A stretch of DNA of 64,000 nucleotides from Ostreococcus lucimarinus. Lineage: Eukaryota. Every line of letters starts with the position of its first letter. The first letter of the stretch is position 1. This document shows, piece after piece, positions 1,241-19,930 of this stretch. The stretch lies in assembly GCA_000092065.1 (NCBI GenBank), contig CP000598.1. One strand, given 5' to 3'. The position numbers and the translations under genes are program-made. Under the pieces are notes generated by a model that was given only the letters and a program-made list of their open reading frames with translations, did not search any database and was not told the DNA's origin.

Positions 1241-1365
1241 GGTTTCGCCAGGCACGTGTCAAAAATTGGCAAATTCTGAAACTCGTTTTTTGCTAGGGTT
1301 TAGCTTTAACGTCTCCGAACGCTCCGACGGGGAGGCGATGACGCCGCCGCCACTCGTCGACGCCT
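1241..1365 (+). promoter_or_regulatory. Conserved upstream module, copy 1 of 4 ('..gtgtcaaaaa..ctgaaactcg.ttttgctagggtttagc..ccactcgtcgacg'). Contains a telo-box-like AAACCCTA/TAGGGTTT core. Lies about 470 bp 5' of the DUF285 giant gene ATG.
   Basis: Aligned by eye to 14921-15062, 18008-18176 and 19758-19930, all on the plus strand and all immediately 5' of a plus-strand gene. An inverted 'aaaccctaaac' sits at 1207-1217. Confidence 0.6.
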
Positions 1366-1838
1366 CCGTCCGCGGTCGTTCGCGTCGACATAGTTCAAGT
1401 GGTACCCTTGGACGACGGGCCCACCCGTGCGCACCCACGGGTGGGTGAAGTGCGTTTCCGTGGCGCGCCGTCGCCGTTCGGTCCTTCGCGGGCGACCGTA
1501 GCGCAACCGGGCGATCTCCGTGCGGGCGGCGCGACGCGACGCCGGTGCACGCATCGCAAGGGGCACACGCCGGGGGCACGGCGCCATTCGCGGCGAACGG
1601 TACGCCACCACACACGTTCGCAGCGGCGGACGGCATGCGTGGGCGGGTTGGAGGCAACGTTGTATTGAAAATTGCGTACAGCACTGTTGGGCAGACCGGC
1701 TCGTTGAAGCAGCATACGGATCTACGAGCGAAAGCATTTTCTCCGTCGAATATCATAGGGAAACAGCATGATAGATCAGTTGCACGGTCGAATCACAGTG
1801 CTCGAGCATCCTTCAGTTATCATACGTTGAAGGTGAAA

Positions 1839-4800
1839 ATGATTTTAACACTCGTATCCATCGCTATATCCATGGGAAATACACTTGCGAGTGGTAGCAT
1901 AGCGCTCACCGACGCAACGTTTTCTACTGCGATCGCTAGTTGCCTCGAGGAGGCAGCGTCGGATGGCCTGTGTACTTCTTACGGCTTTGCAAGTGGGTTC
2001 GGAGCGATGCCTGATTGGGACACGGGCAATGTCACGAACATGGGTAGTGCATTTTCGTCTAAATACTACTTCAATGCATCCATCGGGAACTGGAACACGT
2101 CGCGAGTGACGTATATGGGTTCCATGTTTCAGTCTGCGTATTCGTTTAATCAGGACATCGGGAACTGGAACACGTCGCAGGTGACGAACATGTATTCCAT
2201 GTTTCAGTCTGCGAATTCGTTTAATCAGGACATCGGGAACTGGAACACGGCGCGAGTGACGTATATGGGTTCCATGTTTCAGTATGCATCTTCGTTTGAT
2301 CAGGACATCGGGGGCTGGAACACGTCGCAGGTGACGAACATGTATTCCATGTTTCAGTATGCGTCTTCGTTTGATCAGGATATCGGGAACTGGAACACGT
2401 CGCGAGTGACGTATATGTATTCCATGTTTCAGGGCGCATCTGCGTTTGATCAGGACATCGGGGGCTGGAACACGTCGCGAGTGACCAATATGGGTTCCAT
2501 GTTTCAGTATGCATCTTCGTTTGATCAGGACATCACAAACTGGAACACGTCGCGAGTGACCAATATGGGTTCCATGTTTCAGTATGCATCTTCGTTTGAT
2601 CAGGACATCACAAACTGGAACACGGCGCGAGTAACGTACATGACCAACATTTTCCAAAACGCGACGGCGTTTCAGGCGAAATATACATGTTCGACCGTTC
2701 AATCTGGACCCATCGCATCGTGTTCGCAGTGCGTTGCAAACTGTGCCGCTTGTAGTAACACTGCGTCGGGTGTTTGTAGTGTTTGCATGACTGGGTACAC
2801 ATTAGACGGAGGAATGTGTGCGGCACCCGCTGCGGCGCTCACCGACGCAACGTTTTCTACTGCGATCGCTAGTTGCCTCGAGGAGGCAGCGTCGGATGGC
2901 CTGTGTACTTCTTACGGCTTTGCAAGTGGGTTCGGAGCGATGCCTGATTGGGACACGGGCAATGTCACGAACATGGGTAGTGCATTTTCGTCTAAATACT
3001 ACTTCAATGCATCCATCGGGAACTGGAACACGTCGCGAGTGACGTATATGGGTTCCATGTTTCAGTCTGCGTATTCGTTTAATCAGGACATCGGGAACTG
3101 GAACACGTCGCAGGTGACGAACATGTATTCCATGTTTCAGTCTGCGAATTCGTTTAATCAGGACATCGGGAACTGGAACACGGCGCGAGTGACGTATATG
3201 GGTTCCATGTTTCAGTATGCATCTTCGTTTGATCAGGACATCGGGGGCTGGAACACGTCGCAGGTGACGAACATGTATTCCATGTTTCAGTATGCGTCTT
3301 CGTTTGATCAGGATATCGGGAACTGGAACACGTCGCGAGTGACGTATATGTATTCCATGTTTCAGGGCGCATCTGCGTTTGATCAGGACATCGGGGGCTG
3401 GAACACGTCGCGAGTGACCAATATGGGTTCCATGTTTCAGTATGCATCTTCGTTTGATCAGGACATCACAAACTGGAACACGTCGCGAGTGACCAATATG
3501 GGTTCCATGTTTCAGTATGCATCTTCGTTTGATCAGGACATCACAAACTGGAACACGGCGCGAGTAACGTACATGACCAACATTTTCCAAAACGCGACGG
3601 CGTTTCAGGCGAAATATACATGTTCGACCGTTCAATCTGGACCCATCGCATCGTGTCGATCGGGGTCACCATTTCAGAATTCGACCGAGTTGAAGCTTGC
3701 GGTCGACAGCTGTTTACTCGCGGATCCAACAGGAAATTGTGATTGCAGAAGTTCTCTGGTCGACTGCCGGGCGGCGAGCGGCGATTCAATATCGAAATGG
3801 GATACACGCTTCGTAACGAATATGAGCTCCTTGTTTGCAGGATCAGATCAATTTAACGCAGATTTAGGTGCTTGGAACACAAGTGCCGTTACTTCGATGT
3901 CGCACATGTTTCATGGAGCCGCTGCGTTCAACAAAGACATTAGTGGTACGTATAATGCGAATATCTTCGCGTGGGACGTGAGCGGCGTGACGGACATGAC
4001 TCGAATGTTCGAAGGCGCTAATAGTTTCGCTCAGGACATCAGCTCGTGGAACGTGGTGAACGTCGCGAGCATGGACAGTATGTTTTCGGGCGCAAACGCG
4101 TTCAACGCGCCCATCGGCAGTTGGAACACAGACGGCGTGACAAACATGTTTCAGATGTTCCACTCAGCACATGTGTTCGATCAACCAATCGGAAGCTGGA
4201 ACACGGAACGGGTGACGAGCATGCAGTGCATGTTCATGTATGCGCGTGAATTCAATCAGGATATCAGCTCCTGGAACACGGTCAACGTGGTAAATATGTG
4301 GGATATGTTTAATAGTGCGGATGCGTTCAACCAGAACATTGGGTTATGGAACACAGAGGAGGTGACGGATATGAGATACATGTTCTATAACGCGGGTGCG
4401 TTCAACCAGCCCATAGGGTCGTGGAACACCGCCAATGTCACGACCATGCGATCTATGTTTCAGGGCGCATCTGCGTTTAATCAGGACATCGGAAACTGGA
4501 ACACGACTTCTGTCACGGACATGTACAGCATGTTTGGTAGCGCGACGGCGTTCAATCAGAACATCACGGGATGGCACACGCCGAATACTGGTATTACTTG
4601 CGATTCATCGCAAACGGCGTGTGGTGATACAGGGTGTTTTGACATCGGTAATTGTGCTGCTGCGATGTTTTCCGGTGCGACAGCTTGGTTAGCGAGGTAT
4701 GCTCGCATGGATGGGAATGCGTCGAGCACCGATGGACCTCCGTCTCAGTGGGTCGGCCCGACACCATTTTTGAGTCGAGACGCTTTAGTCGCGGCGGTTG

Positions 4801-7800
4801 ATAATTGCTTGACCGAGGACGAGACGGGAAGTTGCGATTGCTCTGATTACGACGTCGATTGTGGCGCCGCCGTAAAGCTGCCGATCACGGAATGGGACGT
4901 GAGCCTCATCGTGGATATGAACGAGCTATTTAAGGCTCGAGCAGCTTTCAATCAACCGGTTGGTGTTTGGAACACTAGTAGCGTGACGGATATGAGCGGC
5001 ATGTTTGAGAGCGCATCCGCGTTTAACCAGCCCGTTGGTAACTGGAACACGGGTAGTGTGACGGACATGAGCGGCATGTTTGAGAGCGCATCCGCGTTTA
5101 ACCAGCCCATTGGTAACTGGGCCACGGGCAGTGTGGCGGATATGAGCGGGATGTTTGAGAGCGCATCTGAATTCAATCAGAATATTAGTAGCTGGTCAGT
5201 CGCTTCTGTGGTGAACATGCAATCCATGTTTTCCTCTGCTTCATCCTTCGAGCAAGACATCACTGGATGGATTTCAACTAGTGTCACGACGGACATGGCG
5301 ACGGACATGTTTCTCTCTGCGACAGCTTGGCTGCGAACATTCGCACGCACAGATGGCGAAGACACCCCCCATGGTCCACCATCCGATTGGGGCGAACCGT
5401 GTGGCAATGGGTGGTACGATGAGAAAGTTCAGGGGGAGAAGGAGGATGACTTTTGTGAGCCAAAAGTGAACGGGATTGAAGTGAAAGGATGTGCAGATGA
5501 CTGCAAAGTAAAAACGAACTGGAAGTGCGACAATGTCGACTTGCTACGCCCCGGTGATGACTTCGACAGCTACAATTGTACGTGCGACAACCCGGTGGGC
5601 ACGTATGCATCACCTAATCTTGATAATGATTGTGCTCGCACAGATTGCGTTTATGTCGAACGGTGTCTCGCTAACGGCCTAGGCTGTGCGCCCGGTGCCG
5701 GTGGAATGTGGGACGTGGGACGTGGAACGTGGGACGCGGTGAACGCATGCGGCAAGTGCTTGAGGGCCGCTGATATTGCCGAGCTCCCACTCAACGAACG
5801 AAGTAGGCACAACAAGGCTGGCTATTACAAGACTGGGCAGACGTGCACGGCTTGTCCTGCGACATCAGCCGCGGGACTTTTCGCTGCGGCTGCGGTTGTC
5901 GTCGTCCTCGCTTTTTGTGGTTTCAAAGCCTCTCAATTGATGGGCGCTCAAGCGACGAACAATTTGAAGAAAATTGTCGAGTCGCTGCAGTTCTTCTCTC
6001 TTTCGCTCAGTATGAGTATCAAGTGGCCTGGGCCCGTACTCAATCTCGGTAAATATTTGGAAGCTTTCACGTTCAGCATTGAGTTTCTACGACCCCAATG
6101 CGTCGCTGCGGGGCTGGATTGGCTCAATATATTTTTGTCCTCGGTGTTTGTCGTTCCCGCTCTCATCTTCATAATCATCGTCGTGAACAATAGACGGGCG
6201 AGGCACCGTTACAAAACAACGGTGCGCGCGATCGACAGTGAACGACACGAGGATGGCGAAACGGTCTACTGGATCGAGAAACCAGGGTTCCTGTGGGGTA
6301 CGCGGAGAGCTTACGAGTCCAAGGGCGGAGATAAGATTGTTCGTGAGTTGCAGCGCCAGTATCGGTTTCGAGCCGCGCTTCGATCTTTCGGCGTACTGTC
6401 ACTGACCATCCTGTACCTTCCCATCGTGCGTATGTGCCTTCAGTCATACGATTGCATAAAGATAGACGGCGTGGATGGGCTTCGATTGGAGCATGACATA
6501 GATATCCTCTGTGAAAGCGAAGGGCACGTGATCATCCAGGCCGCCGCCGCGGTGATGTTGGCCATTGTCGGTATCGGCATGCCAATTTACGTCGTTATGC
6601 AAGTTCGTAAGATCCGTTTGAGTGGTAAACTGGATGATCCGCAGACTATCGACTCGTATGGTCCGTTCTACGACGTCTACCGGCGCGAGGAGCTCACACA
6701 TGATCACAAATTGGAGATTGCGAGGATTCGACAAACCGCGGTCGAGTCGTCCTCATTTCGACGAGGCGAAGGCACGAGCGACGAACGTCCTTTCGATGCA
6801 GCAACTGATGATATTGCAGAAGAAATCGCAAATGAAGTCAGGGTCGACACGGAAGAAGATTCAAGCGACGTCGATCGTGTTGACGTCGAGGACGATAGTG
6901 GCACTCCACCACCTCAGAAAGTTTCATCCGGTCTCGGTAAGCTCGCTCGGGCGTTAACGATGACGAAGTCTGCTTTAGGCCGGACGACGTCAGCGAAAGC
7001 GCGCGAACGGGCACATCGAATGCACTGGAAGGACAGGTTCGCGCTTCACTACCTGGCCGTTGAACTAGTGCAGAAGAGTTGCGTCATTTTGACGACGTCT
7101 CCGATAGTGGCCGAAACCGCGGTGAGCGGTTGGGCTCTGGTTGTCGTACACTGGTTTACCGGCGCCTTCGTCTACGTGTGTCAGCCTTGGCGCATCATGA
7201 CGCTCGGCTTCGGCAAATACAAGGTGCGAAATTGCTTGAACAAAGTCGAGTCCTTGGCTGGATTTTTGCAGGGCGTGGGACCGTTCTTGGCAATGATCTT
7301 CCCTGTTCAGAGAAACGAGTTCGGTGAGGTGAAGCAAACTGTGACACTCTCAGCCATAACTGTCCTGCTGACCATCATAATCACCGGGCTGCTTTCTATT
7401 CGTATCATTGTTTTCGTCGGCGAACGCGTCGCCGTCAAACGAAAGAAGATGGATATCGACAAGGATCCCGAGAAATGCATGCAAAATGTTCACAAACAAC
7501 TGGTCAAGCTCGCAACCAACAGAGCGATTGTGAGCATGTTTGCTTTCAAGGCAGATTTCGACATTAAGCGCCGTAAAGCACGCGCGAGGCTGGAAGATAC
7601 TCGCCAAGCGATGTTATCGCGCATCGATATCTTGAAGTCACAACAGACCGACGAGGACCATTCCGATAAAATTACCGCGTTGTACGAAGTGGCGAATGAA
7701 ATGGCACACATCGTGAATACGATCGTACCCCAAGCACCGCCAACAGGTCCAAACGCAGAAGGGTGTATCGAATTGCTGGATGAACAACTGGCATCAATTC

Positions 7801-9368
7801 TCAAGGACGTCGACGTCCGAGCGCAGGCGAACGCGTTAGACGCTCCGAATTCTGCGGCGGTACATATCGTGATGAAGGTCCACGCGTTCGATACAATCAT
7901 ATGTCGACTTGACGAACATTTGCTCGAATTCGCGGCGGCAGAACGTGTGAGTGAGCTCGCCGAGCTGGGTCGAAGACACGCTGAATTACGACATACGCGA
8001 CGTTGTGTCGCGATAGGTTTCGGCGACGCAGAGCTTCGAGCTACTTTCGATGCGCTAAGATCGTGCATCGAGGCACTCCGCCATGCCGTTGAGAACGACG
8101 ACTTCGAAGCTGTATTCACAACTTTCAATGGTGGGAAGGAGATCATTGATTCTCACTTACGATGGTGTCGGGATCAATGTGAATTGTTCAAGAGCGCCGA
8201 GGACGAGCACCCCGATTTCCTCGAGGACGAGCCTCCACTGACGACCGAGTTTTTCAAGGCGACAGTCAAGGTGATACAATCCCATGAAAAGCAACTGTCT
8301 AAATTTAAATCGGAATGTATTCGTAACTGGCCCCCGCTTTTCAAGAACTTTGGCCGCGTCAAGTACATACAAGGCTTTGCTGAGCAACTTCAGAATCAAC
8401 TCCATCTCGATCTCAATGAAAGCACGCCGGAGGAGGCCAAGGCTGTTTTCGATCAGGTGTTGGCCTTCACAGATGGCTTCGCGCTTTGGTGCGGCGATTT
8501 AGTGGCACAGGTCGAAGGCTCAGATGTCTTCATCTTGTTTGAGCCAATCGCCCGCGCGATGGTGGAAAGCTTGAAAGCCATCAGAGCAGACGCTGAGTCG
8601 CAAAGTGCACTCGCGAGGCAAGCATTGAGTACGATAGATTATGTGGTGACGCAACGGGCGTTGGCCGCAACGACGCGGTCGGGCTTGCAGACAGCACTCG
8701 CGGATGGTACGTCTGCGCTTGAAGACCAGCTCGCCGCAGAAATTGCAGACATGGACGCTGCGAAGATTTCTCGAGAGACTACTTTCGAGACCGAAAAGAT
8801 GCGCACCGAGGAAGCTTTGAATACATTAGAGCAAGAGTTGGACGGTAGGCGAGCGGTTTTAGAGGACGACATTCGATCGCAACAGGACACTATCGCGCGG
8901 CTACAAAACTTGAAACGGGAAGAGGCCGCGGCATCGAGCTCTATAAACCCGTTGAAATGGGAGCGTTTCAGTCGAAGCACTGAGCTCGCCGAAGCTGTAA
9001 GTGCACTCCGTATGAGCAAACAAAACTTGAAGAATGAAGAGCTTGCAAATGAGAAGGCCCGCGGGGATGCGCGTAAGGCGGTTCATTCGTTGGAACGGGG
9101 CCTGAAAAAGGACCTGGTCGAATGTGACGTCCGAGCAAAGAAAATCCGAGACGATGTGGCAAAGGAGCTGAAGAAACAAACTATGGATGCTCAGAGGAAG
9201 ACACCCGAAGATGCTAAAGCCCATAAGGCTAGTCTGGCTTCCAGGCGCGCGGTGTTCCAGCAACAACGCGCCGCCGCTAAACTCATCGCGAGCGAAAGTA
9301 GAGAAGCTACGCGAATTCAAGCACAGCTTGCATACTACATGCGAAATTTAAAGGCGCGCGAATCGTGA
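1839..9368 (+). CDS. Giant DUF285-repeat membrane protein. Signal peptide [13 protein letters not shown], then over 30 copies of the '[23 protein letters not shown]' unit (DUF285/PF03382-like), Cys-rich EGF-like linkers, several predicted TM helices (about aa 1430-1950 of the ORF), and a long alpha-helical/coiled-coil C-terminal domain.
   Basis: 7.8-kb uninterrupted ORF. The ORF-track start at 1545 is GC-rich, in-frame upstream sequence; the first ATG followed by a hydrophobic signal peptide is at 1839. The repeated N[WT]NTS.VT.M..MF motif is read directly. The C-terminal domain ([14 protein letters not shown]...[13 protein letters not shown]) is paralogous to ORF 20822..21832. Confidence 0.8.
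1902..3656 (+). repeat. Perfect intragenic tandem duplication. 822-bp unit at 1902-2723 is repeated at 2835-3656 (offset 933 bp = 311 codons), separated by a 111-bp Cys-rich linker.
   Basis: Minus-strand shadow ORFs 1845..2702 and 2802..3635 have identical 270-aa translations. The plus protein repeats '[22 protein letters not shown]...[14 protein letters not shown]' twice. Confidence 0.85.
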
Positions 9369-9685
9369 TATAACGGTCGACTACGAGGAATACACGCATA
9401 GTCGAAACATGAGCACCCTGTCGCAGAAGGAGCTGAGTTTCCGCTTCGTTACGGATGAGATTGTGCGAGAAGACATGCCACATTCAAATTCGGGGCGATG
9501 GCTCACAAATCAGGCAAGAGAAGACAGGTGCACGTGCAAACTCTCAGCGGAACGAGTTGGTCGTCTCGAAGATCTCGGTGTTTGGTGAGACCAAGCCGAC
9601 GCACAGGAGGAGCACTTCGATGCCTGGAGGTACAGAAGATGTAACTCATCTTAAGCGTACGACTATTCAGACCTTGGGGGTTCCG

Positions 9686-10018
9686 CTTAAGATTTCTTCG
9701 GAATGGAATCTCTGAACGCAAGGCGTGGATGTACATTAAACCATGAACGAGGCGGGCCACGGTTCGATTTTTTGGATTACAAGTGTAGGTCTACTTTTAC
9801 GTTTCGTGGACTCTGCTTGAGTCGGCCGATGTCACCATGTCAGTCAGGTGCTTCGAGTGCACTAGAGACGTGACCGCCCATACACAGGACGTCGAGCTCG
9901 GCGTGCCTGATTTCACGACTCGGCGACCATGGTTTGAAACCGAAATGACCATCGGCTTCAGGCCCAGGCGCGGCCGCAATGCTACTTTAAACTTAATATT
10001 TTTTTTTTGAAAAAAGAG
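9686..10018 (+). repeat. Dispersed repeat R1, copy a (about 335 bp). Begins 'cttaagatttcttcggaatggaatctctgaacgcaaggcgtggatgtacattaaaccatgaacg' and ends in a T10 tract plus 'gaaaaaagagta'.
   Basis: Near-identical copy at 16378-16712. The shared shadow ORF peptide MRPRLGLKPMVISVSNHGRRVVKSGTPSST appears in both. Confidence 0.75.
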
Positions 10019-10227
10019 TAGTAAGAGTAATAAAAATAAACTTTTTTTTGTTTGAGTTGGGGCACCCCAACATGATAAAACCGCACATCGCGGCGAGCCG
10101 CGCGACGACGATCACTTCGGTCACATTTCCAGTCAGTGATTCTCGTCGTGTGATTCATCGTGTTTGACGTCGACGTTGATGTACCACATGTAAGATCTCT
10201 TCAGAACCAATCGTGTGAGTGAAGTGT

Positions 10228-10725
10228 TCAGGCCAAGTCGCGTAACTCATCTAGCGTAAATTGATACTTGTCGAGACTGCGCTTTGAAGGCAGCGTGCCA
10301 CGCGCTCGAGCATTCTTGAGGCACGTCTTACGCAGTATTCTTTTCGCGTGCTGCTTGTAATAATTGAGTTGTCTGTAGTTACCATCGCCGCCGTCACGCT
10401 TCGGCGTATATTGGGCTCTGCTGTAGGCTTGACTCTCGTCCACGTTCTCGTGACACGCGTGTTTCTGGCTGCGTCCAGCAGCTCGGGAGTTGAATAAGCC
10501 GTCGCGCTTCTCTCTCATGTATGCACTTTTACGTTGATGGAGCTCTCCAGCTGGAATGTCCTTTTCGAGAACTCTCACGTCCGCGTCGCCAAACGTGAAG
10601 ATTGGATGTCGTGCGTATTTATGCGAGGCAAGGCGCGCTCTGAGCGAACCTGTCGTCGATCCGATGTACGTTTTGTCACATTTCGCATTATCGCTAAACA
10701 TTTCGTACACGCACCCCGTAGGCAT
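10228..10725 (-). CDS. GIY-YIG family endonuclease (165 aa).
   Basis: N-terminal 'GCVYEMF...(11 aa)...TYIGSTTGSLRARLASH' fits the GIY-(10-11)-YIG spacing with the conserved Arg. A downstream acidic/Asn region follows. Identical copy at 22162..22659. Confidence 0.7.
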   Translation of the reverse strand: MPTGCVYEMFSDNAKCDKTYIGSTTGSLRARLASHKYARHPIFTFGDADVRVLEKDIPAGELHQRKSAYMREKRDGLFNSRAAGRSQKHACHENVDESQAYSRAQYTPKRDGGDGNYRQLNYYKQHAKRILRKTCLKNARARGTLPSKRSLDKYQFTLDELRDLA

Positions 10726-11150
10726 TTGTCCTGGTTACCTATCCATCCCTAAGAAAATATTGTTGCCTCCTCCTGCGGTTTGCAGTCACATTCGAGAGAC
10801 CATAGGTACTCGTGTCGCTGCGTGGGGTGCAAGGTCCGGGGTGTAGATATCGAACCGCCTGATTTCACACCTGGACGTTCGTGATCCGACGAGACCTGAC
10901 GAAATGACGAACTTGTTTTGTCGTCCCCAAATTCGTCAGCCCGTCGTTCGGTCACACTTTGTGTGTACCAATGATGAAAATGACGAAATGTTAAAATATT
11001 TTAATGTTTATTTTTATTTTAGATCTATGACAAGCAACAGTGTAGACCTTTATGAAAACAGTTCGTCATTCGTCATTTCGTCAGGATCCAAACCATGGTC
11101 TTTTCGGTGTCTTGTTGAGTCTTCATATTGCAAATGTACGAATCACAAAA

Positions 11151-11726
11151 TTAGTATGAACACCAGACGACCGCCGGCGCGAGCTCCGTCTCCCCCGTGT
11201 ACCCATTGTTCTTCAGCCACTCGAAGCACCCGTCGCGGTCAATTTCCCAATAGACGCCCTTCTCGTCCCTACCTTGCCTCAGGTGGTCCTCTTCCATTGG
11301 GATCCTGTGGCCCTTTTCCTTCTTGAAGAAGTCCTTGAGCTTATTGCCGACCTTCGTCGCGCTATCTTGTCCACGCGCAGCCGCTGGCAACCACGTCTGG
11401 TATTCGATGAAGATGTCACTGTTGCGGATTTTATTTCCAACCCACTTCTCAGGGAATTCAACAGTGACGCAATGCTCAAACCATCGAGTGAACTTGGGCA
11501 TGCAGCCACGCTTCATTTCCGAATACGCGTCGGTCGTAGGTCTCGTGCGCTCCACATGATAACCGGTACGGAGAAGTTTATATTTATTAATTAAAGACTC
11601 GCGCGTGTTGGCGCTAAATGATTTTATTGCTGCCGAGAGACTCAAGTTTGGCCGTCGTTTGAGTCGCATCGATGGGTCGCGCCCGCCGATATAACGCCGG
11701 CGTTTCGGACACGATCTTGAAAACAA
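11151..11726 (-). CDS. Hypothetical protein (191 aa), part of the duplicated block.
   Basis: Compositionally normal ORF, identical (1 substitution) at 23093..23668. No family recognised. Confidence 0.45.
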   Translation of the reverse strand: MFSRSCPKRRRYIGGRDPSMRLKRRPNLSLSAAIKSFSANTRESLINKYKLLRTGYHVERTRPTTDAYSEMKRGCMPKFTRWFEHCVTVEFPEKWVGNKIRNSDIFIEYQTWLPAAARGQDSATKVGNKLKDFFKKEKGHRIPMEEDHLRQGRDEKGVYWEIDRDGCFEWLKNNGYTGETELAPAVVWCSY

Positions 11727-11746
11727 GCACTGGTTGACTTGATTGA

Positions 11747-14272
11747 TTAGGAAACCTTATCCGTGCCTTTTACGCTGAGCCCGGTCATGGACGGCTTCGT
11801 CGGCATGGTGAACGCGGTGTAGTCCGCCGCCGTGGGCACCGTGATGCTCGTGTCGTACGACATCCCGGAGCACGCCGACGCATCGGCGGGAGCAAGCATT
11901 TCGACACCACTTTCGAGTTTCAAGACGTACCGGTCGCCAGTCGATGGTTGTTTGAACGTGGTGCCATCGGGGATCAGGACATCCGGACGGCGATGGTAAC
12001 CATTGTTGTCGTCGCACTCCTCGTTGCCATACTGGTCGACCTCGGGCGCCGCGCGCGAACCAGTCATCGGATTGAAGCAAATGAACGGCGCGTCGCCCAA
12101 CCAACCGCCTTCGTAACGCACGTTGAGATTCACCCCGGAGTAGTCGGTACCGGATGGAGAGCGCAGCAACACGGCGTCCGTGGGTATCTTGCCTTGAAGC
12201 TGGAGAGGCGCATCCATGAACTTCTTTGACGCGGAGTCCGAAGGATCTTCGAGCCACGCCATGCCCTCCCAATTGCTTGAGCTCCACTCGTAGTGCACAT
12301 CCAATTTGTTGGGTTCCTCGCAAACGTCGGTAGTGGCGGTGCAACTCAAAGTGTCGAGGTTCGCAGGTGTAGCTTCGAAGAGAACCATATGAACTTCTCC
12401 CGAGTCAAAGAATGAGTTGGTTGGGTCCATTACGACTTCAGCGCCGAGGGTGCCGGAAACGTCTTCCTTCAACGAGCCGGTATCTTTGTCGAAGACGTAC
12501 TTTTTATAAGTGCTTCGAGCGTCGTTGTATCCGTTCGGCGAGCCGTAGAACTGGCTGTCGTGACTGCTCGCACTCGATAGCTTCGTCTGGTCGATACACC
12601 GCTCGCCGCACGTGAGTGCGAGGTGGCTGCTGAGCGACCCAGGGGGGACGGTTTGCGCGTCAGACACTTTGAAGTGCGTCAGGTTAAGCAAACTCGCAGA
12701 GCCTCGGCCGAAGATGCTTCCCCAGCAGCGTATGATTTGGTTGTCAATGTCAGCCATCGTGAGCGCACGCGGAGTCGTGATTGAGTTCGTGTTCAGCGAT
12801 CCACCGTTCCAAGTTCGCTTCGACGACAACACGAGTGCGTTCGCGTCGGAGTCATACCTGAACTTGACCTCAACTTCTGCAGCGTTAGTGTCATCCCAGA
12901 ACCAGCCTGTGATCGTCGCCCCTTGGTAGTCGCTTGCGCTTCGCACCGTCGCCGTGAACTTGTACAACACCCCGCGTGAGACTTTGAGCCTCTTGTTCAC
13001 GTTCAGTATCGGATCATCCCAATCGACAATTTCCTCTACTACGTTCCCGTCGGTGAACGCGGTTTGAGCGATAGTCTTCTCGGCGGTACTGAGCGCGGTG
13101 TCGGAAATGTAGTCGTAATCGGAAATGTAGAGATTGCCCGGATAGTGCAGATCAGCATTATACGTCTTGCCGTCGCTGCCTGTAGCCTGAAGATGCACGT
13201 AGCTTTGAAGGTTCACCTTCGCCCCGTTGCTGTCGTACGCGCCGTAGCGCTCACCGAAGAACGATCTGTTCTCGAGTTCATCGCAGAATGACTGCCCGTA
13301 CGCCTTCGTCTTGACGAGCGTAGCGGTAGTCACCAATTGACCCGCTTGTGTCGAACCATTATCAAAGTCGATGGTCTGGAAAGAGGCCTTCGTGATGTCG
13401 TTTTCTGCGCGCGATTTAGCACCCGCGGTGAATGAATTGCTGCCTCGTGTCACCTCTTCCCACCACGTGACCCCGGTCGCCGTGCAATCCGAATCCGCGT
13501 CGGTGGTTTCGCACTCGCGACGAACCACACCTTTGATGCGTTGGGACGCGGTCGAGCCAGTCGGCGATTGGTACGTAAAGGTAAAGTTTTTCACCAAGAT
13601 TTTGTCAGACTTGATGGCGACGTCATCGCGCTTGACGATCATTTCCGTGTCGATGTTCGGCATTTCTGGGGTATCGCTGAGGGCTACCCAGACGTTCGTC
13701 TTGAAATCACGGGTATCGCTCGCGTCGTCGATGTCTGGGCCCGTGGCGTTGACGACCCAACGGTACGTAACCTTACCCTTGATTCGGTCGCCGTCGCTGT
13801 TGTCACAGTGGAAAGGATCGATCTCAGCGATGTATGGGCCAGTGTTCAGGTTCGCCGTCCAGTTCACCGAGGCGACGTAGCAAAGAACCATGTTTGGTAT
13901 CTGGAAAATTTCGGTACTTACAGCGTCGACGAACGTCTCCGCCGGCGGCGCCGTGGCGTAGTCGGACGTCGAAGAGAACGAAGACACTTCGAGAGGCGTC
14001 ACCTCGACGAGCGAACGACCATCGATTCGAGACGAACCAGAAGACGTCGTCGAAACACCCTCTGACGGGATCATGGTGACTTTACGCGGCGTCAACGCCG
14101 CCTTGAGCGCGTTCGTCTTCGCCGCGCCCGACAGCCCGCTGACGGTGGTCGGGGTCGGGGCCGGGGCCGGGGTCGCGTCGTCATCCCTGAGCCCGATGCC
14201 GAGGCCGGTGCCAAGGGCGACCACCACGGCGGCGACACCAACGATCGCGATCGCAACGCCACGTCTCACCAT
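11747..14272 (-). CDS. Secreted or membrane-anchored hypothetical protein (841 aa). N-terminal hydrophobic anchor MVRRGVAIAIVGVAAVVVALGTGLGIG, PAPAPTPT linker, large Thr/Ser/Asp-rich beta-type ectodomain with scattered Cys.
   Basis: Long uninterrupted ORF. Duplicated at 23689..26220 (843 aa; extra PA in the linker). Stop is 21 bp upstream of the start of the 191-aa ORF. Confidence 0.6.
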   Translation of the reverse strand: MVRRGVAIAIVGVAAVVVALGTGLGIGLRDDDATPAPAPTPTTVSGLSGAAKTNALKAALTPRKVTMIPSEGVSTTSSGSSRIDGRSLVEVTPLEVSSFSSTSDYATAPPAETFVDAVSTEIFQIPNMVLCYVASVNWTANLNTGPYIAEIDPFHCDNSDGDRIKGKVTYRWVVNATGPDIDDASDTRDFKTNVWVALSDTPEMPNIDTEMIVKRDDVAIKSDKILVKNFTFTYQSPTGSTASQRIKGVVRRECETTDADSDCTATGVTWWEEVTRGSNSFTAGAKSRAENDITKASFQTIDFDNGSTQAGQLVTTATLVKTKAYGQSFCDELENRSFFGERYGAYDSNGAKVNLQSYVHLQATGSDGKTYNADLHYPGNLYISDYDYISDTALSTAEKTIAQTAFTDGNVVEEIVDWDDPILNVNKRLKVSRGVLYKFTATVRSASDYQGATITGWFWDDTNAAEVEVKFRYDSDANALVLSSKRTWNGGSLNTNSITTPRALTMADIDNQIIRCWGSIFGRGSASLLNLTHFKVSDAQTVPPGSLSSHLALTCGERCIDQTKLSSASSHDSQFYGSPNGYNDARSTYKKYVFDKDTGSLKEDVSGTLGAEVVMDPTNSFFDSGEVHMVLFEATPANLDTLSCTATTDVCEEPNKLDVHYEWSSSNWEGMAWLEDPSDSASKKFMDAPLQLQGKIPTDAVLLRSPSGTDYSGVNLNVRYEGGWLGDAPFICFNPMTGSRAAPEVDQYGNEECDDNNGYHRRPDVLIPDGTTFKQPSTGDRYVLKLESGVEMLAPADASACSGMSYDTSITVPTAADYTAFTMPTKPSMTGLSVKGTDKVS

Positions 14273-14404
14273 CGTCGCGCGTTGAAATGCGGCGACGACA
14301 AGTGGCGACGGTGACGCGATCTGCCCGCACGCAATTCAATTCCTTCGGGTCACCTTATCTTTTGGAGCCCCCGGAAACGCGACTGTTTACCAATACGATG
14401 GTTC

Positions 14405-14665
14405 CCGGGTATTGATTACTGGGCCTGTTGGCGCCCCGCGGGTGTGTGTGTGCCAGCCCGTAGGGTTTAAGGTTTAGGATCCGAAATATGGAGCCTCGCT
14501 ATTAAGCCGGGGATCCTCCGCGGGCACGCGCCCCCGCGGGCGTGTGTGTTTTCGCGGTCGGTCGGACGGGAAGCCTGTTGGCGCCCCACGGGTTTGTGTG
14601 TCGGTCCTTAGCGTTTGGGGTTTAGTATCGGACATACGGAGCCTCACTATTTAGCGGTATGACCA
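14405..14665. repeat. Tandem about 150-bp repeats containing degenerate TTTAGGG-type telomere-like units ('ggtttaggatc', 'gggtttaaggtttagg') and 'gcctgttggcgccccgcgggt'. Related array at 17465-17640.
   Basis: Two successive units can be aligned by eye (14420-14530 vs 14570-14660). Shares 'ggcgccccgcgggtttgtgtg..agggtttagg..atcggacatatggagcctcac' with 17520-17640. Confidence 0.65.
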
Positions 14666-14685
14666 CATATATTAATTGATTTATA

Positions 14686-14759
14686 CCATTCATCCCGCGC
14701 ATAAAATCGGGTAGATTACTGTACAGTAATCTACCCGACTTTATGCGCGGGATGAATGG
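14686..14759. repeat. 74-bp near-perfect palindrome/hairpin (37-bp arms, 1 mismatch) with core ATTACTGTACAGTAAT flanked by cccgcgc/gcgcggg.
   Basis: The reverse complement of 14686-14722 equals 14723-14759 except one base. A related hairpin is at 17833-17890. Confidence 0.8.
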
Positions 14760-14920
14760 CATAAATCCCATAGTATATGGGGACCGGACCGGCGGGACGT
14801 GTGATTTTTTACCGTAGGGGTCATGATTGGTCGTTCGGGGGTACTCGTATGAAATAATGAAACACCATACTTTTATTTACATTTTGGTTTATTAAAAAAA
14901 CCCGTACGTGCATTTACTAC

Positions 14921-15062
14921 AGAATTGACCACTTTTCGCGCGGGTTTCACCAGAAAGCTTCAAAAATCGTGCCTTTTCTAAAACTCAATTTTCGCTAGGG
15001 TTTAGCGCCCCCGGTTTTCCGAGGATGCGGGCAGATCTCGCCGTCGGCGCCACTCGTCGACG
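14921..15062 (+). promoter_or_regulatory. Conserved upstream module, copy 2, ending 4 bp before the ATG of 15066..16181.
   Basis: Alignment with copies 1, 3 and 4. Core 'ctagggtttagcgcccccggttttccgaggatgcgggcagatctcgccgtcggcgccactcgtcgacg'. Confidence 0.6.
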
Positions 15063-15065
15063 ACC

Positions 15066-16181
15066 ATGGCCTCCCCGTCGCTCGATGCCGTGCGTTGGAG
15101 CGAATACCGGGCGCTCATGCAAGCGTGGGAAGCGTTTAACCCACACAGGGAGCTCCTGCGTCGGTTTTTACAGAAGCAATCGCACACGGAGCAGTGCCCA
15201 CCCGGCGTCCCGTACGTACCAGATCTGCCGGAGCCGGAGTACTTCGCCGTGAAGAGACGAATCGAGGCCGGGGAAACCGTTCCATGTCCTGGATTCTTAC
15301 GCGAACGCGACAACCGGCGCAATCAATGCCGCTGCGGGGCTCCACTCAGAGTTGATGACACTGGCAATATCTCCTGCACTTCCAAAATTCCCCGTCATGA
15401 GAACTATGGTCCTGTACCTCGTTGCTGTTGCTGGGCCGAAGAAGAGCACGCTCGTAACCAACGACATGACATGCCGCCGTATATTTTAAGGCCGCCACCC
15501 ATAGTGTCCCCCCCTCAAGTACCACCGTCGTCTCAAGTGCTCTTGAGCTTTTTGGAGGGGGTCAGGCCAAGCATGAACGCCAACTACCTGCGATGCGTTC
15601 AAGACATAGACGAAGAGCTCGCTCGTCTGAATGAGCAGCTTGCGGACAACAGCATTTCAACGACGAGGCGTGAAGCGATTCAACAGCATATAGTGAGCGA
15701 ACGCTCCAAACTTGAGGCCAAAGACACACAGTTACAAGATTTTTTTAACACGACGACCGCACTGGCAGAATCCGTGCACACGTTCGAGCACAGAGTGGCA
15801 GAGAAATACCAGAAAGCTGTGGATGCATACATTAAAGCGCAACTGGATGAAGTGGTCGTACCTCCGGATAGTAGAGGGAATCCAAAGTTTAAGGACTCAG
15901 TCGATGGCATCGACAGAGAGTTGGCCAAGTTAGAATCAGAAAATGGAGGCATCTCCAACGACAGCGCTCGCGCTCGCGTCGCCTCCAAACGTAAGAGCGT
16001 GGAAGAGTGTGAATCAGAGCACAAGCGCCTCAAAACCACTTCGGTTGAGTACAACTTGTCTATTTTGAAAGGGAGTTTGGAAAAAGACAAATCTATGTCT
16101 GCTGAAGACAAAAGACGCTGGGAATGCGTCATAAACGCCGTCGGGTTGTTACGAGCAAACGATGCACCAAGAACGCCGTAG
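15066..16181 (+). CDS. Coiled-coil protein (371 aa); paralog of 18177..19220.
   Basis: Shared segment 'LNEQLADNSISTTRREAIQQHIVSERSKLEAKDTQLQ' vs 'LEAQLQDENISETRRSVIPQHIEDTRAKLKEQDNSLN'. Heptad-rich, Glu/Lys/Arg-rich. Confidence 0.6.
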   Translation: MASPSLDAVRWSEYRALMQAWEAFNPHRELLRRFLQKQSHTEQCPPGVPYVPDLPEPEYFAVKRRIEAGETVPCPGFLRERDNRRNQCRCGAPLRVDDTGNISCTSKIPRHENYGPVPRCCCWAEEEHARNQRHDMPPYILRPPPIVSPPQVPPSSQVLLSFLEGVRPSMNANYLRCVQDIDEELARLNEQLADNSISTTRREAIQQHIVSERSKLEAKDTQLQDFFNTTTALAESVHTFEHRVAEKYQKAVDAYIKAQLDEVVVPPDSRGNPKFKDSVDGIDRELAKLESENGGISNDSARARVASKRKSVEECESEHKRLKTTSVEYNLSILKGSLEKDKSMSAEDKRRWECVINAVGLLRANDAPRTP

Positions 16182-16377
16182 CAACAGTATGGGCAAACAG
16201 TTAGGCGTTCTCCATGGCCTCCATTCGCGCGACCAGAGCGTTGACGCGCTCTTCGAGTTCGTCGATGCGGCGTTGTTTAGCGTCGTTCGCGCTCTCTACA
16301 TCGGCGCGACATAGAATAACGATAATCTATATCTGCTATATCTGCTTAATATTCTGCTTAAGATTTCGGCACCCTCG

Positions 16378-16712
16378 CTTAAGATCTCTTCAGAATGGAA
16401 TCTCTGAATGCAAGGCGTGGATGTACATTAAACCATGAACGGACCACGGTTCGATTTTTTTTATTACAAGTGTAGGTCTACTTTTACGTTTGGTGGACTC
16501 CGCTTGAGTCGGCCGATGTCACCGTGTCAGGTGTTCAGAGTGCACTAGAGACGTGACCGCCGATACACAGGGCGTCGAGCTCGGCGTGCCTGATTTCACG
16601 ACTCGGCGACCATGATTTGAAACCGAAATGACCATCGGCTTCAGGCCCAGGCGCGGCCGCAATGCTACTTTAAACTTAATATTTTTTTTTTGAAAAAAGA
16701 GTACTATAGTAC
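16378..16712 (+). repeat. Dispersed repeat R1, copy b. Preceded (16205-16375) by a fragment of a coiled-coil gene 3' end and the 'atagaataacgata' element also seen at 19255-19270.
   Basis: Direct alignment with 9686-10018. The minus-strand frame at 16205-16290 reads ...DAKQRRIDELEERVNALVARMEAMENA* . Confidence 0.7.
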
Positions 16713-17464: not shown

Positions 17465-17640
17465 AGTGAGGCCCGGAGATCCGGGGATCCTCCGCAGCCC
17501 CGCGGGCGTGTGCCTGGCGTGTGCCCTTCGCGGTCGGTCGGACGAGGGGCCCGTTGGCGCCCCGCGGGTTTGTGTGCCAGCCCCAGGGTTTAGGGGTTAG
17601 GATCGGACATATGGAACCTCACTAATTAGCCGCATGACCT
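17465..17640. repeat. Telomere-like repeat unit related to 14405-14665.
   Basis: Shared blocks 'gatcctccgc..ccccgcgggcgtgtg', 'tcgcggtcggtcggacg', 'gttggcgccccgcgggtttgtgtgccagcc', 'agggtttaggggttaggatcggacatatgga'. Confidence 0.65.
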
Positions 17641-17832: not shown

Positions 17833-17890
17833 GGCCAAATCCCGCGCATATATTACTGTACAGTAATCAAAGCGCGGGATGTGGCCAAAG
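17833..17890. repeat. Imperfect hairpin with the same ATTACTGTACAGTAAT core.
   Basis: 'ggccaaatcccgcgcatatattactgtacagtaatcaaagcgcgggatgtggcc' folds back on itself. Confidence 0.6.
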
Positions 17891-18007: not shown

Positions 18008-18176
18008 CATAGGGTTTAGAAATTAGGGTTTAGACGTCAAAAATCGCTCGGGTTCCATCAGAAACGTGTCAAAAACGGGCCTTTTCTGAAACTCGATTTT
18101 TGCTAGGGTTTAGCGCCCCCGGTTTTCCGAGGATGCGGGCAGAGCTCGCCGTCGGAGCCACTCGTCGCCGCACACG
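18008..18176 (+). promoter_or_regulatory. Conserved upstream module, copy 3 (extended form with 'tagggtttagaaattagggtttagac' head), ending at the ATG of 18177..19220.
   Basis: Alignment with copies 1, 2 and 4. Confidence 0.6.
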
Positions 18177-19220
18177 ATGACCGATTCAGTCGCGCACGCC
18201 TCACCGACATGGAGAACGTACTCATTAAACCCGTCGCTGCAACCGGACTGGATGAACGGCACGGCGGAGGTAGAGGCGGTCAAAACAGCGGAGGATGATC
18301 TCGAGCGCTCGTACAAGAACAAGCCGTTCTTCAAGGACGCAAGCTACGAGGCATTCGCCAGACAACGAGACGAGTATGACAAACCGACGCCCGACGGCCT
18401 CGAGGAGTTCAAGCGCATCTTACGGTCGAATTATCTTCGCACCGTAGAGCGCATCGATAAAAATATCCAAGTTCTGGAAGCCCAGCTACAAGACGAGAAT
18501 ATCTCTGAAACGCGACGGTCGGTTATCCCGCAGCACATCGAGGACACTCGTGCGAAATTAAAAGAGCAAGACAATTCATTGAACGCGCTGTGCGCCGATG
18601 TGGATGCGGTTATCGCAGATTTGAAAGGCTTGCCCGATAAAATTGCCGACATTAAAGAGCGCGCCTCTGAACAACTTCAGCGACACAAAAGAAAAAGGAC
18701 TAATGCATCTTTGGAACGCAACCTCGAGGAGTTGAGCGATGCGTTGCGCAGCTACGAGGCGAAAAAAGAACAGGAGAGGCTCACCCTTTGTGAACACCAA
18801 ATTCGCCAACAGAATCTGCCATTGTCCCAGTATGTTCGCTACTCAGGGGGAGGAGTTATCGACGTTGTTCATCCTGTGGGTGTCATCGGCTGCGATGGTA
18901 GTAACCTCAGCGTTGATGGTCGTGGTGGTCGTGGTGGTCGTGGTGGTCGTGGTGGTCGTGGTGATCGTGTTCTTTCGGTTAATCGTCAACGTTACTTTGA
19001 AGTGCCACAATGGCGGCCTGAATGGGGACCTGAGAAGCAATTTTGTGCGTGCAAGAGCTTCCAAGAATGGTACAAAGTCGACGCCGGAGACCTTCTTTAC
19101 AGCGCGCTTCGTGGCGTAGAGGGCGCGCTAAAGGCGCTCAGTGGTTCGGGAGATGACACCTCTTCGCTTCGACGGCGCTTGGGCGATGCCAATTTGGACG
19201 AGGCAAGCACAGGGAGTTAA
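18177..19220 (+). CDS. Coiled-coil protein (347 aa), paralog of 15066..16181, with an internal (GRGG)n tract encoded by a (ggtcgtggt)n microsatellite at about 18918-18965.
   Basis: Paralogy as above. The microsatellite is read directly. Confidence 0.6.
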   Translation: MTDSVAHASPTWRTYSLNPSLQPDWMNGTAEVEAVKTAEDDLERSYKNKPFFKDASYEAFARQRDEYDKPTPDGLEEFKRILRSNYLRTVERIDKNIQVLEAQLQDENISETRRSVIPQHIEDTRAKLKEQDNSLNALCADVDAVIADLKGLPDKIADIKERASEQLQRHKRKRTNASLERNLEELSDALRSYEAKKEQERLTLCEHQIRQQNLPLSQYVRYSGGGVIDVVHPVGVIGCDGSNLSVDGRGGRGGRGGRGGRGDRVLSVNRQRYFEVPQWRPEWGPEKQFCACKSFQEWYKVDAGDLLYSALRGVEGALKALSGSGDDTSSLRRRLGDANLDEASTGS

Positions 19221-19276
19221 TATATGTGGACGTATATTTTGTTGTCCACGAATGGCGCGATATAGAATAACGATAT

Positions 19277-19504
19277 CTAGCCGCTCTCCACCGCCTCCAG
19301 TCTCGACACAATGTCACTGAGCTCACTGCGGAGTTCGTCGATTTGCTGATCTCTCGATGCAACGGCGGCCTCTAAATCGGCGATTTGAGCGTCGTGCTGT
19401 TGCTGTATGCGGTCAACTTCCTGTAATGCTGCGGTTGAGAGCGTTGAAATTGCCGATTCTTGGAGGTGCTTGAAATCGGTAACAACCTCACCGTAGACGA
19501 ACAA
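19277..19504 (-). CDS. Possible terminal coding segment of a convergently transcribed coiled-coil gene (75 aa shown; ...DELRSELSDIVSRLEAVESG*).
   Basis: Heptad pattern. The stop is followed by the 'atatcgttattctat' element that also occurs at 16300. Upstream exons not identified. Confidence 0.3.
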   Translation of the reverse strand: MFVYGEVVTDFKHLQESAISTLSTAALQEVDRIQQQHDAQIADLEAAVASRDQQIDELRSELSDIVSRLEAVESG

Positions 19505-19757
19505 TCCGCGCCGCGCGCGCGCCAGTCCGGTGCGGGGTCGACCGAACTAGCCGTTGGTCGTAGTTTCCGACCGTTTGAATTTGAATTCGCTGCGCGCGCG
19601 GCGCTTGAAGACGACCGTTGGGGCCCAACGAGCATGTAAATCTTTGAGGCAGTTTTCGCCGCGCATGACGCGACGTGGTGTGCGTCGGAGTACGTCTCCG
19701 GCCGTCTCGACGGCGCGGAAAGGTTGCAAGAAGTCTCCTCGACGCATTACATTAAAT

Positions 19758-19930
19758 CTAGGGTTTAGAAATTAGGGTTTAGACATCAAAAATCGCCGAG
19801 GTTCCATCAGAAAGTTGTCAAAAACGTGGCTTTTCTAAAACTCGATTTTTACTAGGGTTTAGCGACCTCCGGTTTTTCGGCGGAGGAATTGCGTGCGGGC
19901 AGATCTCGTCGTTGTCGCCACTCGTCGACG
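19758..19930 (+). promoter_or_regulatory. Conserved upstream module, copy 4, ending about 17 bp before the ATG (19947) of the ARM-repeat gene.
   Basis: Alignment with copies 1-3. Confidence 0.6.

Follow-up and report, generated by a model that had tools for sequence, protein, structure and literature searches.

Conserved 5' flanks of variable genes are exemplified by the ups promoters of the Plasmodium var genes and by the 70-bp repeats located 5' of trypanosome variant surface glycoprotein (VSG) cassettes. The plant telo-box (AAACCCTAA) is another type of upstream element, which derives from the TTTAGGG-type telomere, lies near gene 5' ends in combination with other boxes, and is associated with genes of the translation apparatus, housekeeping genes, or genes of cycling cells. 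Plant telo-boxes are preferentially positioned between -60 and +140 from the start site (PMC2576244), and the TRB proteins that read them have been reported to arise in Klebsormidiophyceae/Streptophyta (PMC10167121). Telomere-type repeats can also nucleate Polycomb repressive complex 2 (PRC2) and trimethylation of lysine 27 of histone H3 (H3K27me3), as in the Arabidopsis telobox-TRB-PRC2 system and at the interstitial telomere repeats of Neurospora, and PRC2 core subunits have been listed for Ostreococcus lucimarinus (PMC8788455). In the Mamiellales, hypervariability marks the small outlier chromosome (SOC), and large gene blocks switch expression on virus resistance by a mechanism stated to be unknown (PMC5082852). 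In this article, a module containing telo-boxes is described that lies upstream of several genes in a 64,000-nt stretch of O. lucimarinus DNA (contig CP000598.1 of assembly GCA_000092065.1), hereafter referred to as the window.

Judged from its sequence, the module is a lineage-specific telo-box upstream cassette that is common to dozens of unrelated Ostreococcus genes and associated with rearrangement breakpoints, a stronger picture than the one first noted. It does not form a new category, since promoters with telo-boxes are already known, as are variable gene sets whose 5' flanks are conserved. The interpretation favored here, with a measured rather than a strong preference, is that it represents the promoter-proximal region and 5' untranslated leader of the downstream gene, a portable cassette that would have been spread by recombination in the Ostreococcus lineage. 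Within the literature collection searched, none of the telo-box or interstitial-telomere papers mentioning Ostreococcus appears, as judged by title and abstract, to deal with an upstream element of this genus, and a full-text search returned no paper joining Ostreococcus with start site, promoter, motif, and chromosome 19. The module may extend the occurrence of telomere-type motifs near gene starts to the prasinophytes, which lie outside the TRB-origin group by the cited phylogeny (PMC10167121); given an origin of TRB proteins in the Streptophyta, any prasinophyte reader would have to be a different Myb-type factor.

Copies in the window were identified with an nhmmer profile built from the four full copies (E 6e-35 to 5e-40). 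An earlier note on this DNA had described four plus-strand copies, and these were recovered as the only full copies in the 64 kb; two leader-only copies on the minus strand, comprising the last ~50 nt of the module, must be added, which brings the module-bearing genes in the window to six when those with the leader alone are counted (Table 1). Each of the six copies faces the ATG of an adjacent long open reading frame (ORF), with a gap of 3-18 nt in five cases and a much longer one at copy 1, where 473 nt separate the module from the signal-peptide-like ATG at 1839. The module-gene units are spaced 1.7-3.1 kb apart, and the same profile detects no copy between 27 and 64 kb. The telo-box, which the earlier note also placed in the module, is present: TAGGGTTT/AAACCCTA occurs 11 times in the window versus 0.59 expected, in all cases within 1.2-19.9 kb, and lies on the plus strand in 10 of the 11 cases, the definition matched being AAACCCTA(A/G) / (T/C)TAGGGTTT, with three per full cassette. 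Additionally, the 27-mer GCTAGGGTTTAGCGCCCCCGGTTTTCC has two exact occurrences versus 0 expected in shuffled sequences; CAAAAAYCG, taken as an independent motif, is not enriched (4 matches versus 2.1 expected).

The full form is illustrated by copy 3, which consists of the double telo-box at 18010-18033, the GACGTCA and ACGTGTCA boxes, a core with a third telo-box at 18104-18113, and the leader, and which ends 4 nt before the ATG of its gene. The double telo-box TAGGGTTTAGAAATTAGGGTTTAGA extends copies 3 and 4 in the 5' direction, starting at 18010 and 19759, and the 5' boundary of copy 4 is set by the point at which homology with 62.0-62.25 kb stops. The ARM-repeat ORF served by copy 4 starts at the ATG at 19947, and an out-of-frame ATG at 19936 is common to other copies. 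Between the leader-only copy at 14288-14337 and the ATG (14272) of the 841-aa ORF that follows it, the distance is 15 nt.

Table 1. Module copies, associated genes, and a neighboring telomere-like repeat in the window.
Feature	Position	Strand	Remarks
Inverted telomere-like repeat CTCTAAACCCTAAA	1203..1216	+	79 nt 5' of copy 1 telo-box; inverted pair CTAAACCCTA / TAGGGTTTAG
Module copy 1	1236..1365	+	nhmmer E 5.7e-35; repeat family D12; telo-box TAGGGTTTAG at 1294-1303
DUF285 giant	1839..9368	+	Pfam DUF285, 12 matched stretches; served by copy 1
841-aa ORF	11747..14272	-	N-terminal hydrophobic segment; downstream of leader-only copy; duplicate (843 aa) at 23689-26220
Leader-only copy GAATTGCGTGCGGGCAGATCGCG...GCCACTTGTCGTCGCC	14288..14337	-	nhmmer E 7.5e-7, second search E 7e-12; without telo-box core
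Module copy 2	14938..15062	+	nhmmer E 4.1e-38; without double telo-box; 3 nt before ATG of coiled-coil gene 1; identical block in L048 and L088
Coiled-coil gene 1 (cc1)	15066..16181	+	371 aa; served by copy 2
Module copy 3, full form	18010..18172	+	nhmmer E 5.2e-40; profile match 18046-18172
Coiled-coil gene 2 (cc2)	18177..19220	+	347 aa; served by copy 3; 72% identical to O. tauri protein
Module copy 4, full form	19759..19934	+	nhmmer E 3.1e-37; profile match 19795-19934
ARM-repeat 'gene'	19947..21832	+	ARM-repeat ORF 19947-20825, then DUF285-type C-terminal domain 20822-21832 in other frame; served by copy 4
Leader-only copy	26236..26285	-	15-18 nt 5' of 843-aa ORF ATG (26220); inside 4.2-kb duplication

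Further copies were sought by an exact search of marine metagenome contigs with the core pattern TTCTRAAACTCNNTTTTNNCTAGGGTTTAGC, which returned 71 loci (L numbers below denote contig loci) and, together with the window, 78 instances in 54 distinct sequence contexts. Two of these loci match window copies exactly (L048 copy 2, L049 copy 4) and thus indicate the same organism in those samples. Among the 50 contexts with enough downstream sequence to be testable, 39 have a same-strand ORF of at least 90 aa whose ATG starts 20-200 nt after the core, compared with 0.30 at random positions in the same contigs (p = 2.7e-12), and in 27 of the 50 the ORF starts inside the 60-nt interval 54-113 nt after the core (0.135 at random, p = 1.4e-11). 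A divergent ORF start is located close upstream in only 8 of 35 contexts, and the core telo-box mostly lies 60-120 nt 5' of the ATG. Enrichment of further copies upstream of genes, which the earlier note proposed to check, is therefore evident in these contexts, and both the window copies and the 54 contexts present the opposite of an arrangement far from genes or in random orientation.

By BLASTP, the downstream ORFs (n = 44) can be divided into about 31 families unrelated to one another, among them Rhomboid+TPR, ankyrin, chlorophyll a/b-binding (light-harvesting complex-like, LHC-like), PLAC8-like, methyltransferase-like, DUF285, ARM, and coiled-coil proteins, as well as many membrane and coiled-coil orphans. 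The proposal that the cassette was propagated with a gene family consequently holds in part, in that it is shared and stands at the 5' end of genes, but these genes do not form one family. Most metagenome loci have a GC content of 50-55%, like the low-GC parts of the window; L078, L084, and L088 sit in GC-rich housekeeping neighborhoods. Many contigs end inside the module, which breaks metagenome assemblies. The 5' ends of contigs within the module were considered as possible start sites and rejected, because they are scattered and thus represent assembly breaks; L003 spans two convergent genes, and no poly(A) tail is found in L086 or L087. One family of eight metagenome loci (g6, including L006 and L035) encodes a divergent LHC-like protein behind a module with repeated CACGTG boxes. 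This protein has no close homologue beyond its own 98% cluster, the next being at most 58% identical, including Bathycoccus at 42-50%, so that the gene offers no close orthologue for a comparison of orthologous promoters, and a comparison of L006 with L035 for selection is uninformative since they are near-identical alleles.

Based on an alignment of 45 representatives and extended upstream views, the module can be described as a non-coding mosaic cassette of ~130-190 bp with four parts. An optional double telo-box TAGGGTTTAGAAATTAGGGTTTAGA at the 5' end is followed by boxes with bZIP-like ACGT cores (GACGTCA, ACGTGTCA/CACGTG) joined to GTCAAAAA, by a 31-nt core TTCTRAAACTCGATTTTTGCTAGGGTTTAGC holding the third telo-box, and by a GC-rich leader of ~45-75 nt, (GGAATTGCGT)GCGGGCAGATCNCGNCGNCGNCGCCACTYGTCGMCGC, which reaches to within a few bases of the ATG. 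In the fullest form, the double telo-box is succeeded by GAC(G/A)TCAAAAATCGCCGAGGTTCCA and then AAACGTGTCAAAAACGGGCCTT, in place of which the LHC-like gene has repeated GGACACGTGTCAAAAACGT, and the stretch between the core and the ATG reads G(A)CCTCCGGTTTTCCGACGGAGGAATTGCGTGCGGGCAGATCGCGTCGTCGKCGCCACTYGTCGMCGCGGCG. The mosaic structure is apparent from the several alternative 5' halves, whose breakpoints cluster at the core edge, and from metagenome loci in which identical downstream genes have differing upstream halves and conversely; the 3' leader and the 5' telo-box part may each be present without the other. Further intergenic elements, shared between copies, stand 5' of many of them: palindromes around TTACTGTACAGTAA and a GGGACCGGACCGGCGGGACGTG...GGGGGTACTCGTATGAAAC block. 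The 3' end of similarity coincides with the start codon; one subfamily shares sequence past an ATG, which is a candidate short upstream reading frame or mini-exon.

The resemblance to the plant telo-box lies in the motif itself, in its origin from the same TTTAGGG-type telomere, and in its position near gene 5' ends together with other boxes. The module telo-box lies 60-110 nt before the ATG, which is compatible with the plant range (PMC2576244), although this is a matter of compatibility only. Unlike its plant counterpart, the motif sits in a conserved cassette of up to ~190 nt in up to three copies, and the genes concerned are of hypervariable or orphan type. The designation 'plant-type telo-box' in the earlier note accordingly applies to the motif; it does not extend to the downstream genes, which are not of the translation or housekeeping kind, or to the TRB readers, reported as Streptophyta-born (PMC10167121).

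The leader is the best candidate for a transcribed 5' untranslated region (5'UTR), because it can be kept alone, abuts the ATG, and recurrently begins at CAGATC. It precedes the ATG without a telo-box in the two minus-strand window copies and in L005, L017, L042, and L044, and in L084 and L086 the similarity runs only from (C)AGATC to the ATG. Transcription may start in or near the recurrent CAGATC, which would yield a 5'UTR of ~40 nt; its CA agrees with the pyrimidine-purine rule for start sites. The upstream telo-boxes and ACGT boxes would then bind sequence-specific factors and thereby confer common regulation on the downstream genes. A structured RNA or spliced leader was also considered and rejected, with folding z-scores of +0.38 and -0.08 versus shuffled sequences, no Rfam match, and no tRNA.

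A number of observations weigh against an interpretation as promoter-proximal region and leader. No ORF start is found within 200 nt downstream in 11 of the 50 testable contexts, and copy 1 is likewise distant from its gene. Among 16 copies found only via the leader, 9 have an altered or 5'-truncated core and 7 have no recognizable core (6 of them with upstream sequence present, while L027 abuts a contig end), which implies that the telo-box part is dispensable for some genes. Since the search was made with the 31-nt core itself, the constancy of the core across the 54 contexts is ascertained rather than measured; outside it, the flanks are conserved only within subfamilies, with a median pairwise identity of 0.62 for the 50 nt upstream and of 0.68 for the leader, compared with 0.56 for unrelated 50-mers. 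A common leader variant holds an upstream ATG (GGATGCGGGCAG), which is awkward if the start site lies 5' of that ATG, and both start site and promoter activity are read from position alone. Moreover, both the telo-box and the leader are missing from the cc2 orthologue in O. tauri and in a tauri-like contig, and the mosaic evidence from metagenomes could partly be assembly chimerism at repeats.

One alternative takes the module for neutral repeat DNA from a hyper-recombinogenic region, such as a patchwork of subtelomere or outlier-chromosome type, homogenized by recent duplication and gene conversion, which would lie beside ATGs because gene-plus-flank units duplicate and would have no regulatory role. 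This explanation, which is considered unlikely, draws on the fact that the first 27 kb of the window are a patchwork of repeats, including a 4.2-kb duplication with 98.8% identity, that several other intergenic repeats accompany the module, and that breakpoints lie in or next to its copies; the flanks outside the core are barely above background identity, the O. tauri orthologue works without the module, and SOC hypervariability and translocations have been documented (PMC13390643, PMC5082852, preprint 10.64898/2026.07.10.737489). However, whole-unit duplication cannot place one cassette before about 31 unrelated protein families. It also leaves unexplained the near-identical modules of cc1 and cc2, which are 89.6% identical over 125 nt, whereas the proteins, paralogous as claimed in the earlier note, share 34% identity over 89 aa (E 7e-11), a discrepancy that calls for constraint, gene conversion, or recent acquisition. 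Neutrality is further at odds with the constant orientation of the module to the gene, with the coincidence of its 3' end with the ATG, and with the survival of the telo-box both in diverged cores, 8 of 9 of which keep TAGGGTTTAG intact with changes confined to the flanks, and at an orthologous upstream region in another species.

Retention across species is partial. A cc2 orthologue of a related species (L078; 81% identical protein, GC-rich housekeeping neighborhood) keeps TAGGGTTTAGGGTTTAGCGACCTC...GGATGCGGGC...GTCGACGCGCGCG-ATG, and two further module copies are located just downstream, one of them before a gene stump of 11 codons. L084, from a relative with an 81% identical cc2 protein, has kept the leader alone. 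The more distant low-GC locus L085, with homologues of cc2 and of the 165-aa ORF described below and a called DUF285 gene, shows CTTAGGGTTTAC ~70 and ~200 nt 5' of two ATGs.

For the preferred reading as a portable upstream cassette, copies would have exchanged sequence through ectopic recombination, gene conversion, or segmental transfer, within DNA that is low in GC, hypervariable, and of the outlier-chromosome or subtelomere type; unrelated genes would thereby gain the same upstream cassette, and the copies could then act as breakpoints for more rearrangement. A case in point is L088 (ENA ERZ27251046 k141_1821283, a 64-kb contig), in which a block at 1390-2770 is 99.8% identical to window 14958-16255, comprising the module and cc1. 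It sits between TatD and Bestrophin genes; on the left, it begins 17 nt 5' of the module core, and behind it comes another copy of the module, broken off within the telo-box. Two genomic contexts are thus known for this module-plus-gene cassette, and each of the two junctions falls inside or beside a module copy. Although metagenome contigs can be chimeric at repeats, the location of the outer junctions against unique sequence argues that they are real. The arrangement may represent a translocation that involved the SOC-like region and a standard chromosome, or else a strain difference; for O. mediterraneus and O. tauri, exchanges between SOC and standard chromosomes are on record (PMC13390643; preprint 10.64898/2026.07.10.737489). 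As a marker of gene-movement breakpoints, the cassette is relevant to gene exchange between the SOC and the remaining genome.

In these respects, the var ups promoters and VSG flanks may be regarded as the functionally closest analogues of the module. They share with it a conserved 5' flank before diverse, fast-evolving genes, in DNA that for the module appears to be recombination-prone or subtelomeric at most loci, and the flank doubles as rearrangement homology, as the L088 block in two contexts illustrates. In contrast, the module serves about 31 unrelated families rather than one antigen family, gives no sign of mutually exclusive expression or of an expression site, and belongs to a free-living alga, for which the selective agent would be viruses.

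The dispersal of the module also raises the possibility, suggested in the earlier note, of a transposon-derived element. In this account, the module is a non-autonomous transposable element, such as a miniature inverted-repeat transposable element (MITE), a short interspersed nuclear element, or a solo-long-terminal-repeat-like sequence, or the terminal part of one, which inserts preferentially at gene 5' ends and provides an outward promoter. The multi-copy dispersed sequence in which many contigs end, the varying 5' truncation points, the palindromic MITE-like neighbors, a nearby 47-nt presence/absence polymorphism, and the telomere-like repeats adjoining some copies (L041, L021) are all compatible with such an origin, which is nevertheless considered very unlikely. 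The module ends carry no terminal inverted repeats, the only pairs being one of 9 nt inside copy 3 and one of telo-boxes that brackets copy 1, and the 5' ends are heterogeneous. No recognizable target-site duplication was found at the two junctions compared (62.2 kb versus copy 4, and L088 versus the window), neither of which is a clean allelic empty site. ARAGORN predicts 0 tRNA genes and Rfam gives 0 matches, which leaves no tRNA-like or Pol III feature, and IMG/VR viral contigs contain 0 matches to the core pattern. Furthermore, the 3' boundary is not sharp, as the module grades into the start codon and one subfamily shares sequence even past the ATG, and orientation follows the downstream gene in metagenome contexts and window alike. 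The transposon origin suggested earlier is thus not upheld.

The telomere-like motifs might instead be connected with chromosome healing by de novo telomere addition, as its relics or its seeds, on a chromosome with frequent terminal deletions, the remainder of the module being a subtelomeric repeat. This would be in line with the shared orientation of 10 of the 11 window telo-boxes, with (CCCTAAA)4 fused directly to the core 5' edge in L041, with the distance of only 2.7 kb that separates the cc2 homologue of O. tauri from the (CCCTAAA)n terminus of its chromosome 9 contig, and with reports of SOCs that have large terminal deletions yet telomeres (PMC13390643). The strand bias, however, follows from gene orientation, TAGGGTTTAG amounts to only ~1.4 telomere units, the module also occurs in GC-rich housekeeping neighborhoods (L078, L088), and the repeats in L041 and near copy 1 are opposite in orientation to the telo-box of the module. 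Healing is therefore regarded as highly improbable.

A more far-reaching version of the regulatory interpretation can be formulated, in which the telo-box cassettes serve as cis-acting handles for the switch that alters transcription block by block on the SOC, also called the 'viral immunity chromosome'. A telomere-repeat-binding Myb factor would occupy the 1-3 telo-boxes and nucleate facultative heterochromatin (of PRC2/H3K27me3 type or resembling a telomere position effect), so that hypervariable gene sets of surface or unknown function would be silenced or released together, and the cassettes would also serve as homology for moving genes between the SOC and standard chromosomes. This proposal is put forward as a quite improbable one. 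The likeness to PRC2-nucleating repeats consists in short interstitial telomere-type repeats beside genes, and block-wise silencing and activation are known for the Ostreococcus SOC (PMC5082852); as a difference, only a subset of the SOC-like genes in the window carries the module, with none between 27 and 64 kb. Being recognizable, fixed in orientation, and placed before dozens of unrelated genes, the cassette offers a concrete candidate cis-element for the block-wise regulation and the plasticity of the SOC.

Repeated gene-plus-flank units are also known from the SOC of O. tauri and O. mediterraneus, where they form tandem-repeat 'accordion' regions (PMC5082852, PMC13390643). In these, whole units of 1.8-2.3 kb recur in near-identical form, whereas module-led genes share only the upstream cassette and differ in their gene bodies. 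The ends of contig L086 (JGI Ga0453793_0171898, 1126 nt) overlap (ATGTAATACACATA), which suggests that its cc2-like gene is the unit of a ~1.1-kb tandem repeat resembling the accordion.

The window as a whole is compact, intron-poor, eukaryotic DNA with a GC content of 46-55% across most of its length and 57-65% at 26-36 kb. The genes between 27 and 64 kb include a C5 DNA methyltransferase, FkbM methyltransferases, glycosyltransferases, an epimerase/dehydratase, a UDP-glucose dehydrogenase, and a nucleotide-sugar transporter. Because these genes and the DUF285 'cell-surface repeat' protein fit the categories of the O. tauri SOC (PMC5082852), the window can be inferred to be SOC-like DNA. The C5 cytosine DNA methyltransferase (34624-37266, +) combines a mono-CXXC unit with a Tudor domain, and the O. 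tauri SOC also carries a C5 methyltransferase (PMC5082852). A BCCT transporter (29.3-31.5 kb) is 99% identical to a large marine-metagenome protein cluster, the next clusters being 86%, 79%, and 78% identical, so that the source Ostreococcus appears to be abundant in ocean metagenomes. In related species, several long contigs (starts of L074, L075, L076, L082, and L083) break off at a point some hundred bases upstream of either the BCCT gene or a cc2 homologue, which suggests that these ends mark the start of repeat-rich or variable DNA, as at ~26-27 kb in the window. The (CCCTAAA)n at the O. tauri chromosome 9 end confirms the TTTAGGG-type telomere for the genus. In L077 (the end of O. tauri CAID01000009.2), positions 1-480 hold (CCCTAAA)n and then ~400 nt of degenerate telomere-like and other short repeats, followed further in by a minus-strand gene of ~120-nt internal repeats and then the cc2 homologue, a layout that makes the cc2 gene family subtelomeric in O. 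tauri.

Among the genes led by the module, the giant was correctly assigned to DUF285 in the earlier note (Table 1). Its coding region contains 75-nt periodic repeats (1902-5192) and an exact internal duplication of at least 300 nt (1902-2201 = 2835-3134). The claim that the C-terminal domain behind the ARM repeats is paralogous to that of the giant is likewise confirmed, as this ORF matches giant residues 1938-2287 with 29% identity (E 4e-35). The ARM-repeat ORF contains five 132-nt (44-aa) repeats with 91-95% identity (20053-20844). The ARM 'gene' of copy 4 is probably a chimera, since its frame changes at ~20.77-20.82 kb, where a fragment also found at 16190-16250 is inserted. A small antisense coiled-coil gene family (..ELEERVNALVARMEA..), convergent to module-led genes, is represented at L003 640-990 (-) and in the window at 19263-19500 (-) and 1-340 (-). 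Fragments of its 3' end (GTATGGGCAAACAGTTAG..CCTCCATTCGCGCGACCAGAGCGTTGA) are scattered, among other places at the ARM frame break (20764-20822), at 16190-16250, and directly 5' of one module subfamily.

The segmental duplication 10191-14406 / 22125-26353 (4.2 kb, 98.8% identical) includes the leader-only copies and carries three minus-strand ORFs of 165, 191, and 841/843 aa. The 165-aa ORF (10228-10725, -) displays a GIY-YIG-like N-terminal motif (VYE..x..YIGST..R..H) that was recognized only visually; searches of Pfam, PHROGs, and PDB gave negative results for this reading. A 50% identical homologue occurs in L085 (12078-12560) beside cc2-like, ARM-like, and DUF285 genes. The 191-aa ORF (11151-11726, -) has a weak likeness to the C-terminus of a DNA primase (phrog_1156, E 0.026), and tblastn revealed no viral relatives of these two small ORFs.

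Several repeats adjoin the module. A near-perfect 120-nt palindrome at 14663-14782 (88% complementary, no spacer), with center TTACTGTACAGTAA and flanks CCCGCGCATAAA / TTTATGCGCGGG, looks like a MITE or hairpin element; it is also found at 17840-17890, and related palindromes precede many module copies (e.g., upstream of L015, L037, L055, and L065). An element of ~85 nt, GCGCCCCGCGGGTTTGTGTG..AGGGTTTAGGGGTTAGGATCGGACATATGGAGCCTCACTATTTAGC, with degenerate telomere-like repeats is present at 14421-14509, 14573-14655, and 17547-17632, and L006 and L035 differ by a 47-nt presence/absence of this element. A 330-nt repeat (9684-10020 / 16376-16703, 93% identical) follows two genes led by the module and has a T10/A-rich tract at its end, and the short motif CGCTTAAGAT(T/C)TC recurs at repeat-segment junctions (9686, 16340-16385, and 22100-22135). 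Other dispersed or tandem repeats of 88-98% identity, unrelated to the module and found mainly in the module-free part, include 55862-56043 / 61243-61417, 57820-58187 / 61458-61825, 45780-45865 / 61847-61929 (inverted), 46205-46380, and 799-875 / 28348-28426.

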